Positions 5,833 through 40,601 of a stretch of DNA of 64,000 nt are shown piece by piece. The stretch covers positions 105,810-169,809 of the forward strand of contig JAPLXP010000003.1 in NCBI GenBank assembly GCA_026396015.1, read 5' to 3'. How positions within the stretch are numbered: the first letter of the stretch is position 1; every line of letters begins with the position of its first letter. The notes under the pieces were generated by a model. The model did not search any database and was not told the origin of the DNA. It was given only the letters and a program-made list of their open reading frames with translations. This DNA is from Candidatus Nomurabacteria bacterium (GTDB lineage Bacteria > Patescibacteriota > Minisyncoccia > Phycocordibacterales > UBA9973). Position numbers and translations under genes: made by a program.

Positions 5833-5834
5833 TG

Positions 5835-5921
5835 CGGAGCCGGACGGATTCGAACCGTCGAGGGCTTTTACACCCTGCCTCTTTAGCAAAGAGGTACGTT
5901 AGACCACTCTGACACGGCTCC
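5835..5921 (-). tRNA. tRNA-Ser (anticodon GCU), type II with long variable arm
   Basis: Minus strand GGAGCCG...CCTCT-TTGCTAA-AGAGG...GACGG-TTCGAAT-CCGTC-CGGCTCC-G. It has a 7-bp acceptor stem, canonical T loop and discriminator G. Confidence 0.85.
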
Positions 5922-7786: not shown

Positions 7787-7846
7787 AAAGTTCACAAAAT
7801 ACCACCTTTCTGCTATACTCAGAAAATCATACATGGAGGCGTGGAT

Positions 7847-7970
7847 ATGAAATATGAACTGCTTCATATTTCATCCGTTCGGTCACAATAGACCGACGAG
7901 CGATTATACGAAGTATAAGCTCGAGGGTAGGGTCCGGGAGGACACGAAGACACAACGACGAGTATAACGA
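7847..7970 (+). other. about 125-nt structured intergenic element bounded by a 12-nt direct repeat of the downstream tRNA 5' end (GGAGGCGTGGAT at 7835 and 7971). It contains GC-rich boxes related to the ligA-insert repeat
   Basis: Perfect hairpins tgaaatatgaa-ctgc-ttcatatttca, cggtc-acaata-gaccg and gagcgattatac-gaa-gtataagctc. cggtc...ccgacgagcg and gtccgggaggac resemble the boxes at 29681 and 29704. Confidence 0.4.
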
Positions 7971-8055
7971 GGAGGCGTGGATGAGTGGTTTAAATCAACG
8001 GTTTACTAAACCGTCGTCTGTTACAGGACCGTGAGTTCGAATCTCACCGCCTCCG
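7971..8055 (+). tRNA. type II tRNA with Ser-type identity (long variable arm, discriminator G). The apparent anticodon ACU is unusual
   Basis: Acceptor GGAGGCG/CGCCTCC, T arm GTGAG-TTCGAAT-CTCAC, anticodon stem-loop ACGGT-TTACTAA-ACCGT giving positions 34-36 = ACT. Confidence 0.6.
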
Positions 8056-8094
8056 CAAAATTGTGATAGCACGATATTTGTCATAAATGAACAC

Positions 8095-8844
8095 ATGAAA
8101 ATACTCACTCTCAATACCCAAAAAGCATACCAACCGGATTTTAAAAATTTTATTGTGAATGTTCTAAATAGAGGAGAGTATGATTTCATTTTGCTTCAAG
8201 AGGTCACATCTTCTGTTTCAGACATGATAAAAACAGCTTCTTCGGAGTATCAAATGATCAATCCATTTGATCCTGAACTCGGAGAACATACGCATGGATG
8301 TGTACTTTATAAAAATTTGTTTACTTTGCAAAAAGAACTATTTGTATCTTTTGCCATTCTTGAACCTGGATTTCCTCGCCATGGCTGGGGATTTACGGGA
8401 GGAGTTTTTAATTACGGCGGTAAAAGAATATTTGTTGGCTCAGCACACTTGCATCCAGGATTAAGAAAGAAACGTCGAATGGAACAGCTTAAACTCGTAA
8501 AGGAAAAAGTTATGGCAGAATTTGGTGCGATAACTGTAGTATTTGGTGGTGATTTTAATTTCGGAATGCCGGGAGAAATTTCTTGTTCCGAAAAGATACT
8601 GTCTCCGGAATTTGTGCGAGTCACGAAAGGTCTTGGTCCAACGCTTGATAGTAGATATACCGAGAAAACATCGTGGGGCGTAGCTAGGATAGCGAACATA
8701 CTAGCGAAACTTGGTATTTCTATTAGGCTCAGAGCTGATCATGTATATATCGATAGCCTCACTGTAAAAAGCGCACCTGTGAGATGTCGGATAGTTCCTG
8801 ATCGGGTATCGGATCATTTGGCAGTCGAAGTCTCTATTGGATAA
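8095..8844 (+). CDS. endonuclease/exonuclease/phosphatase (EEP) family protein
   Basis: FILLQEV near the N-terminus, GGDFNF, and the C-terminal SDHLAV motif typical of ExoIII/EEP-fold enzymes. Confidence 0.7.
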   Translation: MKILTLNTQKAYQPDFKNFIVNVLNRGEYDFILLQEVTSSVSDMIKTASSEYQMINPFDPELGEHTHGCVLYKNLFTLQKELFVSFAILEPGFPRHGWGFTGGVFNYGGKRIFVGSAHLHPGLRKKRRMEQLKLVKEKVMAEFGAITVVFGGDFNFGMPGEISCSEKILSPEFVRVTKGLGPTLDSRYTEKTSWGVARIANILAKLGISIRLRADHVYIDSLTVKSAPVRCRIVPDRVSDHLAVEVSIG

Positions 8845-8920
8845 GGTGCTCGAGACGCGTCGATTTTGAATCTGAAAAAATGCTAAAATGACCTTACTGG
8901 TCTTGTCGGGTTTTAGTTCT

Positions 8921-9040
8921 AACACGACGTTCTCCGCAAAAAAGAAAACCCGAAAGGGTTTTTCTTTTTTTGCGGGCGAGAAAGTGATCTGCGTCACTTT
9001 TGTGTGAGATTCGAAGACCTTTTCGTTATGATTAAAGAAT
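8921..9040 (+). other. degenerate copy (C) of the tRNA-3'-end-associated element family (see 33442 and 40116). It includes a 42-nt palindromic terminator-like hairpin
   Basis: ccgcaaaaaagaaaacccgaaagggtttttctttttttgcgg (8934-8975) parallels the hairpin after tRNA-Asp. gaagaccttttcgttatga matches gaagaccttttccttatga at 40181 at 18/19 positions. It is preceded by the tRNA-3'-like remnant ttctccgca. Confidence 0.4.
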
Positions 9041-9121
9041 GCTATTCTTTAATACTCGTCTTGTTTTCAATTATGATTTTTGACTATAGCAGAAAATGGT
9101 CTTTTTTGCTACTATGTTTTT

Positions 9122-39948: not shown

Positions 39949-40044
39949 TCCTATATGATACTCTGCTGTACCATATTTTTCAATTGTTTTTTATCTATTT
40001 TGTGGTAATATATGCCTATTACCATTTTGTAAATTGGTAAATAT

Positions 40045-40115
40045 TGCTAGATCGTCTAATGGTAGGACAACGGTTTCTGGTACCGTTTATCTAGGTTCGA
40101 GTCCTAGTCTAGCAA
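40045..40115 (+). tRNA. tRNA-Gln (CUG)
   Basis: U1-A72 acceptor TGCTAGA/TCTAGCA as in bacterial tRNA-Gln, anticodon stem-loop ACGGT-TTCTGGT-ACCGT, T arm CTAGG-TTCGAGT-CCTAG. Confidence 0.7.
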
Positions 40116-40276
40116 CAAAAAATAGCGCAGCGGTTTTTGCTGCTAGAAACAAGACAACTGCTTGTCTTGTGGCTAGGACAAGAAGACCTTTTCCTTATGA
40201 GTGTAATCACGAATGGAAAAGTGTGTACTGAATCTGTAAGGTTTGAGAGGTGTAATCACGGTCCTAGTCTAGCAGC
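40116..40276 (+). other. tRNA-Gln-associated structured element (B). Hairpin, tRNA-5'-like TGCTAGA, a 9-bp hairpin, GGCTAGGACAAG, the conserved GAAGACCTTTTCCTTA...GGAAAAGT, then a 14-nt direct repeat of the tRNA-Gln 3' end followed by GCCA
   Basis: gtcctagtctagca at 40261 repeats 40102-40115. The gtgtaatcacg direct repeat appears twice. Motifs are shared with element A. Confidence 0.5.
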
Positions 40277-40601
40277 CAACTCGTGTTAGCTCAAAGATAG
40301 AGCTAATTAGGAAAATTTATACTTAAACTGCATACCTGCTGATATCTTACTTTGGAAATATAATTGGTGAATATGCAGTATTCTTAATCCCAATCTCTTT
40401 GGAACGTGGTATAACTAGTACTCAACCAATATTCACGCTTTTGTTTGCTATTATTTTTTTAAAAAAAGCACCAGGTTCATTTAAAGAATCTATTGATTTT
40501 TATTCGTTATGTAAAAAGATAACAATCTTTATTTTTGTAATTGTTGGAATAATATTGATTACTTGGTAGGATTATTTATTATTGTATTTTATAATGATTA
40601 T

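Follow-up and report, generated by a model that had tools for sequence, protein, structure and literature searches.

Structured elements with arms antisense to the 3' ends of neighbouring tRNA genes in Patescibacteria

The trailer of a tRNA-Gln gene from Candidatus Nomurabacteria carries, like that of a tRNA-Asp gene, a gene-less, structured element of about 125-140 nt which belongs to a large and apparently undescribed family with copies of about 105-145 nt. Two arms of the element, split by a hairpin (P2), are jointly antisense to the neighbouring tRNA gene, running from the T loop through the discriminator and into the trailer. The DNA analysed was one stretch of 64,000 nucleotides, referred to here as the window, and it contains three copies of the family, of Gln, Asp and degenerate Ser type (Table 1). 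An initial annotation of the window had proposed that the Asp and Gln trailers belong to one genuine family and are not two accidents. That proposal is strongly supported and proved to be an understatement; a covariance model (R1) built on the architecture common to the two trailers finds 67 copies with heavy covariation, behind tRNAs for at least 17 amino-acid types. The reading we favour, with a little less than even confidence, is that the Gln trailer is a copy of a non-autonomous insertion-element family of the Patescibacteria, which recognises tRNA-gene 3' ends through base pairing and makes second copies of them.

Table 1. Coordinates of the three copies of the element in the window and of their parts
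Feature	Position	Strand	Basis or description
tRNA-Gln(CTG)	40045-40115 (ARAGORN/Rfam end 40115/6)	+	ARAGORN; Rfam RF00005, 61.2 bits
Proximal 14-nt direct repeat GTCCTAGTCTAGCA	40101-40114	+	T-stem 3' strand and acceptor 3' strand of tRNA-Gln
Linker	40117-40143	+	A-run and hairpin gcagc-ggttttt-gctgc (40127-40143); sequence, terminator scan
Arm 1 (P1 5' strand) GCTGCTAGA	40139-40147	+	Complement of tRNA acceptor 3' strand and G73-C74
P2 hairpin, 9 bp, acaagacaa-CTGC-ttgtcttgt	40149-40170	+	Loop AACUGCUU invariant in family; all 9 pairs covary
Arm 2 (P3 5' strand), CTAGGAC (40173-40179) and AAGAA	40173-40187	+	Sequence, alignments
P4 stem CUUUUCC...GGAAAAG	40188-40221 (strands 40188-40194/40215-40221)	+	Apical gtgtaatcac hairpin
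Type-B junction GUGUACU and P5 hairpin gaatct-GUA-aggttt (GUA triloop)	40222-40244	+	
P6 small hairpin gtg-taat-cac	40250-40259	+	Optional module, just before distal tRNA copy in many members
Distal copy of tRNA 3' end	GTCCTAGTCTAGCA 40261-40274; G-CCA 40275-40278	+	Able to pair with arms 1 and 2
Type-A element behind tRNA-Asp (33368-33441)	33469-33590	+	Covariance model, 109 bits
Asp terminator hairpin	33448-33469		
Asp arm GCGGTCG	33472-33478		
Asp P2	33481-33502		
Asp arm CCGGATCTT	33505-33513		
Asp P4	33520-33550		
Asp P5	33557-33569		
Distal tRNA-Asp 3' copy	33576-33589		
Third copy, degenerate, Ser-type	8968-9070	+	Covariance model, 31.5 bits, E 1e-6

All the sequence features listed for the Gln locus by the initial annotation were found, within 1-2 nt of where it had placed them. 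They include the 9-bp P2 hairpin, the CTTTTCC/GGAAAAG stem shared with the Asp element, two copies of GTGTAATCACG (40201-40211 and 40250-40260), and the 14-nt repeat of the tRNA 3' end, continued as GCCA. The window has just two occurrences of the stem with its flanks, one at each of the Asp and Gln loci, compared to an expectation of zero from 100 shuffles. The 65-aa open reading frame at 40034-40231 had been dismissed as RNA read as protein; it overlaps both the tRNA and the element behind it, and there is no support for its being a gene. The tRNA ends with A73 (40115) and the trailer then reads CAAAAAA; the proximal copy of the repeat is followed by ACAA, whereas the distal copy is followed by GCCA. 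The linker, the tRNA 3' end and the first arm form a palindrome. On the minus strand the linker hairpin scored as terminator-like, but on the plus strand it did not score as an intrinsic terminator, unlike the linker of most members of the family, which is a canonical bidirectional terminator-like hairpin. The arms are complementary to the last 20 or so nucleotides of tRNA-Gln, from the T loop to the discriminator. Arm 1 contains TGCTAGA (40141-40147), and with the TT upstream of it yields TTGC, the complement of a GCAA trailer. Arm 2 complements the 3' strand of the T stem and, imperfectly, the T loop, and is followed by the conserved GAC of the GAAGAC junction. The sequence of the P4 stem is nearly invariant throughout the family.

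Folding of 40136-40279 as a single RNA, a check that had been proposed for this locus, gave a predicted free energy of -52.4 kcal/mol (z -4.6), more stable than all of 200 shuffles. The predicted fold of the Asp element also beats its shuffles (z -6.4). The segment has no T loop and no anticodon arm, and as canonical tRNA both ARAGORN and Rfam RF00005 report 40045-40115 only. The initial annotation had drawn attention to a discriminator and encoded CCA at the end of the distal copy. These are present here, but they are not general, as the distal G-CCA-A is found at three tRNA-Gln loci only (the window, L181 and L101). Conceivably, the distal G73-CCA is the true 3' end of tRNA-Gln, with an insertion of about 160 nt between the T arm and the acceptor 3' strand, or the two ends are used as alternatives. 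The minimum-energy fold predicted for 40045-40279 pairs the 5' acceptor strand of the tRNA with the distal copy, and it is the distal copy that has, besides CCA, the G73 that tRNA-Gln genes have on the related contigs examined (L003, L098, L148, L181 and L219), whereas the proximal end at this locus has A73; the recurrence of G-CCA-A at the other two loci points the same way. We nevertheless consider this very improbable. The proximal gene is a complete, high-scoring tRNA, and the same A73 tRNA-Gln is retained in L214, which has no element, and in L002, where the element is truncated. In most of the family the distal copy is not followed by CCA, and in many members it is missing altogether. 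To our knowledge, there is no splicing system for such an insertion. In the predicted fold the pairing of arm 1 with the distal copy continues through G73 and C74 (GCUGCUAGA/UCUAGCAGC), so the GCCA need not be a functional CCA end.

Outside the window, homologous copies were found by the covariance model on metagenome contigs, which hold all but three of the 67. About 55 copies came from a scan of the metagenome contigs; their P2 hairpins are perfect yet differ widely in sequence. Fifty-six of the 67 copies lie less than 400 nt downstream of a tRNA on the same strand, and these tRNAs have 24 different anticodons. Within P2, P4 and P5, 97.5% of the pair cells are paired, compared to 74.9% in shuffles, and changes on both sides are seen in 19 of the 21 pairs (P2, 9/9; P5, 5/5; P4, 5/7). 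None of 500 shuffles reached these values, and slid controls were 34-51% paired. The compensatory covariation shows that this is a conserved structured element, of RNA or of single-stranded DNA. Its conserved core consists of P4, P5 and sometimes P6, joined by the invariant single-stranded motifs GAAAGAC and GUACC and the GUA triloop.

Such conservation would also fit a structured non-coding RNA that is useful to the host and is made by read-through from the tRNA promoter, its core binding a protein or another RNA. Arms 1 and 2 and the distal copy would then form an acceptor/T-stem-like coaxial helix, the 'top half' of a tRNA, in which P2 replaces the D and anticodon arms and the P4/P5 domain replaces the T loop, and RNase P, RNase Z and the CCA-adding enzyme would release a discrete RNA of about 125-140 nt. 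A tRNA minihelix has exactly this topology of a 5' strand, a side arm, a second 5' strand and a contiguous 3' strand. Without exception the element lies on the strand of the tRNA and directly downstream of it, the linker at the Gln locus has no plus-strand terminator, and the folds are far more stable than shuffles. P2 and P5 covary strongly, the junction motifs are invariant over many contigs, and orthologous copies are kept in streamlined genomes, with hairpin tips that vary. We still consider a host RNA, the main rival to an insertion element, rather unlikely. The hairpin with a GC stem and T-run which separates the tRNA from most copies should halt transcription, a distal copy is lacking in 17 of the 56 copies and arm 1 in several, and the tandem, truncated and type-swapped copies described below fit turnover better.

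MAFFT failed to register the tRNA-specific arms, and they were therefore analysed by anchored scripts and not through the covariance model. The longest stretches common to the arms and the reverse complement of their own tRNA were 7.9 and 9.8 nt, compared to 4.2 and 5.4 nt with other tRNAs. The arm on the T side is perfect (9/9) in 24 of the 56 copies and matches at 8/9 or better in 40. The complementarity reaches tRNA positions 73-76 and crosses the linker, in unbroken stretches of up to 25 base pairs. At G.U positions of the tRNA the arm complements the 3' strand in 27 instances and copies the 5' strand in about one, which rules out an origin of the arms as copies of tRNA 5' strands by tRNA duplication. 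Where CCA is encoded in the gene the arm has TGG (2/2); elsewhere it never does (0/27), and the arms complement the genomic NCAA trailer instead. Templating of the arms on mature tRNA, in the manner of a primer-binding site, is ruled out by this result. The arms are thus the Watson-Crick complement of the genomic 3' strand of the tRNA, including its trailer. In the element behind tRNA-Ala the arm changes G3.U70 to A-U, making an aminoacylation mimic unlikely. The counts of wobble pairs gave a weak signal as to strand (G.U 18, A.C 9).

Two earlier interpretations at the Gln locus are altered by these results. TGCTAGA had been taken for a copy of the 5' acceptor strand. It is identical to that strand here because the acceptor stem of tRNA-Gln is fully Watson-Crick, but family-wide the arm is the complement of the 3' strand. 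Similarly, GGCTAGGACAAG, which had been likened to the D loop and anticodon stem, actually corresponds, as reverse complement, to the 3' strand of the T stem together with part of the T loop. The likeness to the D loop is a coincidence; in related Gln elements the sequence varies with the T arm of the same locus, not with its D region.

RNA function alone does not readily account for the match of the arms to the neighbouring tRNA; a processing signal or a stable stem does not need the exact sequence of its neighbour. The same applies to a processing helix in the proposed host RNA, and identity elements such as G3.U70 are erased. Moreover, where the distal copy is mutated the arms match the tRNA in 26 cases and the distal copy in 4, so that the helix between arms and distal copy is not maintained by compensation.

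A distal copy of the tRNA end is found in 39 of the 56 tRNA-adjoining copies, and in 25 of those 39 it is perfect. It spans nucleotides 56-74 of the tRNA, approximately; the duplication is about 17-19 nt of tRNA. Integration at the T-loop sublocation classically leaves direct repeats that run from the T loop to the 3' end of the tRNA. The element might be a scar of ordinary integrase-mediated phage or island integration, with the copies of the tRNA end as attL and attR and an internal deletion leaving about 120 nt between them. Direct repeats of the 3' part of the tRNA do flank the element, and larger cassettes share them. However, remnants of random deletion at 24 different tRNAs would not agree in length class and architecture or have covarying hairpins in common, nor would they bear arms antisense to the tRNA of each locus. 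Near the 22 loci inspected by eye, neither an integrase gene nor a remnant of one was recognised, and no matching attP was found in viral and plasmid collections. On this evidence, we judge such a scar to be improbable.

The distribution of the elements among related contigs is patchy. Neither tRNA-Gln nor tRNA-Asp has an element in L004, while L219 has a type-A element at tRNA-Gln and none at tRNA-Asp; the element at tRNA-Gln is of type B in the window, L003 and L215. In L002 the element is truncated inside the P2 loop, and in L214 the tRNA is inverted and there is no element. Tandem units occur in L130 and L131, and partial second units in L003, L215, L162, L163 and L207. Gene cassettes have the same repeat geometry as the elements. 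One is a 225-aa open reading frame between two copies of the tRNA-Gln end (L181), and another, in the window, is a gene of the EEP family between the end of tRNA-Ser and a decayed copy of that end (8915-8941). This decayed copy lies, with a terminator, upstream of the Ser-type element, which has a P1 arm, a P2-like hairpin and a decayed P4, and whose 12-nt arm GTGAGATTCGAA perfectly matches the T arm of tRNA-Ser. Orthologous Gln and Asp elements persist across genomes in which the neighbouring LOG proteins are 76-84% identical, with the junction motifs kept and the hairpin tips varying.

To account for these features as an insertion element, we infer mobility, a guiding role of the arms, a single-stranded intermediate and an enzyme. 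The arms would recognise the 3' end of a tRNA gene by base pairing, the element being in a single-stranded DNA or RNA form. In the folded form, the arms and the tRNA segment would pair into a duplex that mirrors the target, P2 branching off its side, and an enzyme encoded elsewhere could act in trans by gripping the conserved core. A direct repeat of the segment would be left behind when the element inserts or recombines at the tRNA end, and this repeat would permit tandem accretion, unequal crossing-over and the capture of gene cassettes. Following a jump or a mutation, the arms may be matched again to the tRNA beside them by template switching within the strand, across the palindrome that arms and tRNA form. 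Correction of quasipalindromes, in which template switching perfects imperfect palindromes, is a known mutational route.

Several observations sit uneasily with an insertion element. No gene of recombinase type was recognised beside the copies, and no free, viral or plasmid form was found. No pair of empty and filled sites came from near-identical strains, and the boundaries and the original repeat are ambiguous. Orthologous elements that persist across such genomes with conserved junctions also fit a selected host RNA. Some copies have decayed arms and a near-consensus core (in L144, arms 6/12 and 123.9 bits), which is surprising for a dead mobile copy unless its core is homogenised by gene conversion. 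Arm matching to 24 different tRNAs is not explained by any demonstrated process.

The searches behind these statements were as follows. At permissive E-values (cmscan, E<=10), Rfam 15 gave no family at its gathering score, the best matches (E about 0.05) being to unrelated miRNA and sRNA models. There was no Rfam match to tmRNA or to known tRNA-like families (Y RNA-like, mascRNA, TLS), no tmRNA by ARAGORN, and no cmscan match at E<=10 to ribozymes or to group I or II introns. The group I introns known from Patescibacteria tRNAs are anticodon-loop introns and are unrelated to the element (PMC13011429). A hammerhead, or a k-turn, at the P3/P4/P5 junction and the P4 tip was rejected by eye against the consensus; in the alignments, read by eye, the junction sequences GAAAGAC/UACC/GA do not fit a hammerhead core. 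Two stricter patterns for the core motif had no match in IMG/VR viral contigs, and a looser pattern matched one phage open reading frame by chance. The element had no BLAST match in INPHARED phages or PLSDB plasmids. No free attP form was found in IMG/VR, INPHARED or PLSDB, collections in which such searches would not detect circles. Near 22 loci, no recombinase, transposase, reverse transcriptase or open reading frame of IS110, TnpB or IscB type was recognised from N-terminal sequences by eye, and Pfam scans of 10 open reading frames in the window gave EEP, GNAT and housekeeping domains only, with no recombinase. A full-text literature search found no description of such a family.

Among known systems, the elements resemble the integrative elements of tRNA genes and their integrase-less derivatives, including cis-mobilisable elements (CIMEs) and tycheposon-like arrays. 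These share the site at the tRNA 3' end and the direct repeats that reach from the T loop to that end; the repeat also bounds tandem arrays and cargo cassettes, and the small copies have no recombinase. They differ in that the present element is only about 105-145 nt long, has covarying hairpins and antisense arms, serves at least 24 tRNAs with one family, and has neither an integrase nearby nor an attP-bearing replicon among the sequences searched. Target duplications also arise at CRISPR repeats and with casposons, which insert at tRNA 3' ends and give long duplications (14-15 bp), but here no Cas1-type gene was recognised and no terminal inverted repeats are conserved between copies. Like MITEs and REP/BIME repeats, the elements are small, non-coding, multi-copy and rich in hairpins, and lie near terminators. 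Their 'terminal repeats', however, differ from copy to copy and equal the local tRNA, which does not fit a MITE, and they are confined to tRNA 3' flanks in one orientation.

IS110 bridge RNAs, the EBS/IBS pairings of group II introns and the omega RNAs of TnpB and IscB likewise have a structured non-coding part that is complementary to the target, and specificity could change in the same way, by altering the complementary segments. Here, in contrast, no adjacent recombinase, reverse transcriptase or nuclease was recognised and Rfam gave no match to known families. Also, the element has one continuous antisense of about 17-20 nt that is interrupted by a hairpin, not two guides borne on loops, and the target is duplicated at the far end. 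Retroviral and LTR primer-binding sites are antisense to the 3'-terminal 18 or so nucleotides of a tRNA, whereas the arms complement the genomic trailer and not a CCA-tailed mature tRNA, and no reverse transcriptase was found. The tRNA-like domain of tmRNA, YrlA/Y RNA, mascRNA and viral TLS resemble the element in the possible acceptor/T-stem-like coaxial helix with a side arm, and one copy here ends in GCCA. Unlike them, the element has no T loop, its identity pairs are erased, its helix is uncompensated and it goes undetected by ARAGORN and Rfam; nor does any of these mimics require the sequence of a neighbouring tRNA, which the element reproduces.

It is possible, if on balance doubtful, that the family represents a new class of element programmed by base pairing on tRNA genes, with a split antisense guide to the last 20 or so nucleotides, moved or copied among all the tRNA isotypes of the Patescibacteria by a putative enzyme and with its guide re-templated from the target; or else, and equally new, an RNA that clamps tRNA ends and acts on the 3' half of the cognate tRNA, in repair, quality control or as a decoy. 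If the arms guide insertion, they would constitute a compact and naturally reprogrammable system which addresses a site of 17-20 nt by base pairing, along with a putative new enzyme. Should the product be a host RNA, a major uncultured lineage would have a widespread new RNA class linked to tRNA biology. The genomes of Patescibacteria are tiny and densely packed with genes, and few mobile elements have been recognised in them. A sizeable share of the tRNA genes on the contigs examined have this module of about 120 nt, which is absent from the libraries and literature searched. For annotation, it accounts for recurrent 'partial tRNA' repeats and spurious open reading frames downstream of tRNAs. 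The tRNA 3' flanks are also sites of cassette gain in these genomes, as with the gene of the EEP nuclease family. Finally, the elements preserve fossil states of tRNA ends. At the Gln locus of the window G73 is recorded by both the arm and the distal copy, and the present tRNA-Gln has A73.

The features of the tRNA-Gln locus are collected in the table; on re-reading 40045-40280, the sequence statements of the initial annotation all hold. The proximal end, ie that of the tRNA gene itself, runs on as ACAA, whereas the distal copy of that end is followed by GCCA. Folded as one RNA, as had been proposed, the trailer is far more stable than its shuffles (z -4.6), and the fold of the Asp element at 33469-33590 is also far beyond shuffles (z -6.4). 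In the window the signature CTTTTCCTTA...GGAAAAGT occurs at the Gln and Asp loci only, with a chance expectation of 0. That the two trailers belong to one family is borne out by R1, a covariance model built on the shared architecture, which gives 109 bits to the Asp element, 48.6 bits to the Gln element and 31.5 bits to a decayed Ser-type copy (8968-9070). It found 67 copies in the window and on metagenome contigs among the matches listed, a number in which copies with decayed cores are under-represented because sampling went through the core motifs.

Features of the tRNA-Gln locus (window positions)
Feature	Position	Remark
tRNA-Gln(CTG)	40045-40115	Normal tRNA; ARAGORN and Rfam agree
Linker: A-run and hairpin gcagc-ggttttt-gctgc	40127-43	Directly 3' of tRNA-Gln
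Arm 1: GCTGCTAGA	40139-47	Followed by a single A
P2: perfect 9-bp hairpin, loop CTGC	40149-70	Followed by GG
Arm 2 and junction: CTAGGAC then AAGAAGAC	40173-87	
P4: CTTTTCC...GGAAAAG hairpin, gtgtaatcac tip	40188-221	
GTGTACT, then P5 hairpin with GUA triloop	P5 at 40230-44	
P6: second gtg-taat-cac hairpin	40250-59	
Distal copy: GTCCTAGTCTAGCA	40261-74	Last 14 nt of tRNA-Gln before the discriminator; followed by GCCA

A metagenome scan with a pattern of the P2 loop and P4 stem gave at least approximately 55 matches with a perfect 9-bp P2 of widely varied sequence; the other matches listed have stems of 5 bp or less and are chance matches. The window comes from a Patescibacteria chromosome, the copies were sampled on Parcubacteria-like contigs, and the TIGR00730/LOG neighbour of tRNA-Gln has its best named relatives in Parcubacteria/Nomurabacteria MAGs. 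In the model-fitted alignment, standard pairs fill 97.5% of pair cells, compared to 74.9% after shuffling and 34-51% with slid partners, and both sides have changed at 9/9 P2 pairs and 5/5 P5 pairs. The sequence of P4 is mostly invariant across the family. Several contigs carry more than one copy, eg L131, in which tRNA-Pro is followed by a single copy and tRNA-Gly by a tandem pair. No Rfam 15 family matched the element in searches up to E<=10, and full-text literature searches found no description of it.

Fifty-six of the 67 copies lie less than 400 nt downstream of a same-strand tRNA gene, and most of the remaining 11 sit at contig ends. The tRNAs concerned cover 24 anticodons and 17 amino acids, and the two arms, which flank P2, are specific for the adjacent tRNA. 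The last 26 nt of the tRNA, reverse-complemented, share a longest identical stretch of 7.9 nt with arm 1 and 9.8 nt with arm 2, compared to 4.2 and 5.4 nt, respectively, for other tRNAs. Over 9 nt (positions 57-65) arm 2 is perfect in 24/56 copies and matches at 8/9 or better in 40; for arm 1, 24/56 copies match without error over 7 nt. The complement of the whole T loop usually continues arm 2, so that in the conserved GAAAGAC the 'GAA' is just the complement of T54-T55-C56. At G.U pairs of the acceptor and T stems, the base in the arm is the Watson-Crick complement of the tRNA 3' strand in 27 cases and matches the 5' strand in five, four of these within two mis-parsed tRNAs. The arms are therefore antisense copies of the tRNA 3' strand; duplication of the tRNA 5' half is ruled out, and with it the initial view of arm 1 as a copy of the 5' acceptor strand. 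The tRNA-Ala element has A opposite U70 in place of the G3.U70 identity pair which, together with the antisense arms, makes an aminoacylation mimic unlikely.

Beyond the acceptor, positions 73-76 are complemented too, and often all of the linker, so that as many as 25 pairs follow without a break. Immediately 5' of arm 1, the tetranucleotide is TTGT, TTGC or TTGG where the trailer is ACAA, GCAA or CCAA, respectively; it is TGGT only in the two arm-bearing cases with a gene-encoded CCA. The template was therefore genomic DNA or the primary transcript, and the mature tRNA is ruled out. The main alternative to a mobile element, a structured RNA made by read-through, processed by tRNA enzymes and serving the host, is somewhat unlikely. 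It would account for the strict co-orientation of element and tRNA, the non-terminating linker at the Gln locus and the invariant junction motifs, but there is no reason why an RNA in need of only a stable or tRNA-like helix should be identical to the neighbouring tRNA, lose wobble pairs (in every case on the 5' side) or complement the trailer.

The distal copy, counted at up to three mismatches in 12, is present in 39/56 elements and perfect in 25 of them. Among the positions at which it departs from the tRNA, the arms side 26 times with the tRNA and four times with the copy, so a helix of arms and distal copy lacks compensatory upkeep. In silico, pairing of the arms over the linker with the proximal end of the tRNA is just as stable (z -5.0 for Gln, -8.2 for Asp). 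Completion of the tRNA by the distal CCA end, suggested solely by the predicted fold, is very improbable. In the window, G73 of tRNA-Gln is recorded both by the distal copy (40275) and by the arm extension TTGC (40137-40140), which complements GCAA, and the related contigs examined have G73 in tRNA-Gln as well. The proximal tRNA now has A73 (40115), in common with L002, L214 and L218; the element thus keeps an older G73 state of the tRNA-Gln end. A loop motif, (A/G)ACGCAGTGA or AGCGCAGCGG, is common to the non-terminator linkers (eg window 40124-40133; contigs L096, L154, L175, L176 and L193); its GCAG complements the invariant P2 loop CUGC, so that a loop-loop contact between linker and P2 is possible.

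As the family reading of the initial annotation implied, homologous elements are present behind the same tRNAs in syntenic contigs. L003 has both the Gln and Asp elements, L215/L216 the Gln element, and L002 the Asp element and a Gln element truncated inside the P2 loop. L219 has a type-A Gln element, of the other core type from that of the window, and an empty Asp site; both sites are empty in L004, and in L214 tRNA-Gln is inverted and without element. Orthologous tRNAs in related genomes are empty or carry type A (…GAAAAG-UACC-P5) or type B (…GGAAAAG-GUGUACU-P5); no strain-level empty/filled pair was found among the relatives compared. Elements kept at orthologous sites across 76-84% protein identity, and copies such as L144 with decayed arms yet an intact core, also favour an RNA with a host function. 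P5 variants and hairpin tips are reshuffled from copy to copy, a further sign of turnover. Exact tandem units occur in L130 and L131, and partial second units starting at P2 or GAAGAC in L003, L215, L131, L162, L163 and L207; copies in L102 and L203 are joined straight to the tRNA-CCA end without arm 1. A third core type, type C (L096, 305-420, minus strand), has the T-arm antisense arm 2 and GAAAGAC, without arm 1 or P2. The core that follows is unlike the others (GGAGGCTGGCGAGCCGAGTCGGGGTCGCGAGATTTTTCAGTAGAAAAATAC...) and is succeeded by a catg-taat-catg hairpin and a tRNA-end copy; similar pieces are found in L176, L186 and L162. Beside the LOG gene, tRNA-Gln is inverted relative to the window in L214 (1290-1370), L004 (9694-9765) and L219 (9717-9788).

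An EEP-family gene (endonuclease/exonuclease/phosphatase, PF03372; 8095-8844) lies between two tRNA-Ser(ACT)-end copies, namely the tRNA 3' end at 8034-60 and, at 8915-41, a decayed repeat of these 27 nt with 70% identity, after which comes the decayed Ser-type element. The stretch 8061-8941 is a cargo cassette with the repeat geometry of the small elements. L181 offers a similar case, with a 225-aa ORF bracketed by two tRNA-Gln-end copies and a type-B right-hand module before the second of them. The surroundings of the copies yielded no recognisable recombinase, transposase or reverse transcriptase, the ORFs of metagenome loci being read by eye. The element has no match in phage, plasmid or viral-contig collections, and a classic prophage scar is improbable.

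The exact match of arms and repeat to the neighbouring gene, coupled with a distribution that is patchy and includes tandem, truncated and cassette-linked copies, makes a non-autonomous element targeting tRNA-gene 3' ends the most likely reading, if a tentative one. The key fact is that arms and distal repeat match the neighbour isotype by isotype; these matches look like footprints of how the element arrives or is maintained. The arms, in single-stranded form, would recognise the tRNA-end site by base pairing, and a direct repeat of the tRNA segment would stay behind. A trans-acting enzyme may use the conserved P2/P4/P5 core as its handle, and template switching could keep the arm/tRNA palindrome perfect. 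The mobile and RNA readings are compatible, since a selfish element may act via its transcript. Repeats and arrays are shared with integrase-less cis-mobilisable elements and tandem accretion at tRNA genes, but their decisive feature, a recombinase or free attP, was not found in the loci and collections searched. Internal complementarity to the target recalls IS110 bridge RNAs and group II introns, but the adjacent effector gene decisive for guide-bearing mobile elements was not recognised in the loci read; the helix topology is that of tRNA-like RNAs, but without their decisive T loop or model match. We therefore file the element as a variant among small tRNA-targeting insertion elements. That it is categorically new, as a guide-programmed element or a class of RNA, has a lesser but still substantial probability.

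The tRNA-Ser(ACT) at 7971-8056 has A34 (loop ttACTaa) and a divergent tRNA-Ser(GCT) neighbour at 5834-5921; since the pair recurs on two unrelated metagenome contigs, L154 and L191, this unusual serine tRNA is conserved in the lineage. Directly upstream of it are a 12-nt copy of its 5' end (7835-46), a P2-like hairpin, aaatatgaa-CTGC-ttcatattt (7850-71), and approximately 95 nt of small hairpins including ACGAGTATAACGAGG, a variant of the family P4 tip; 7835-7970 looks like a rearranged element fragment 5' of a tRNA. In the spacer of the Met-Met-Asp-Thr-Thr cluster, 33186-33215 partially duplicates the 5' part of the following tRNA-Met (atgtcgatgtagctgttttagttag compared to gtcgatatagctcaggtagttag). 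Downstream of the Gln element, 40290-40560 has no ORF and resembles what is left of the C-terminal part of a membrane (EamA-like) gene, suggestive of a zone of rearrangement or decay.
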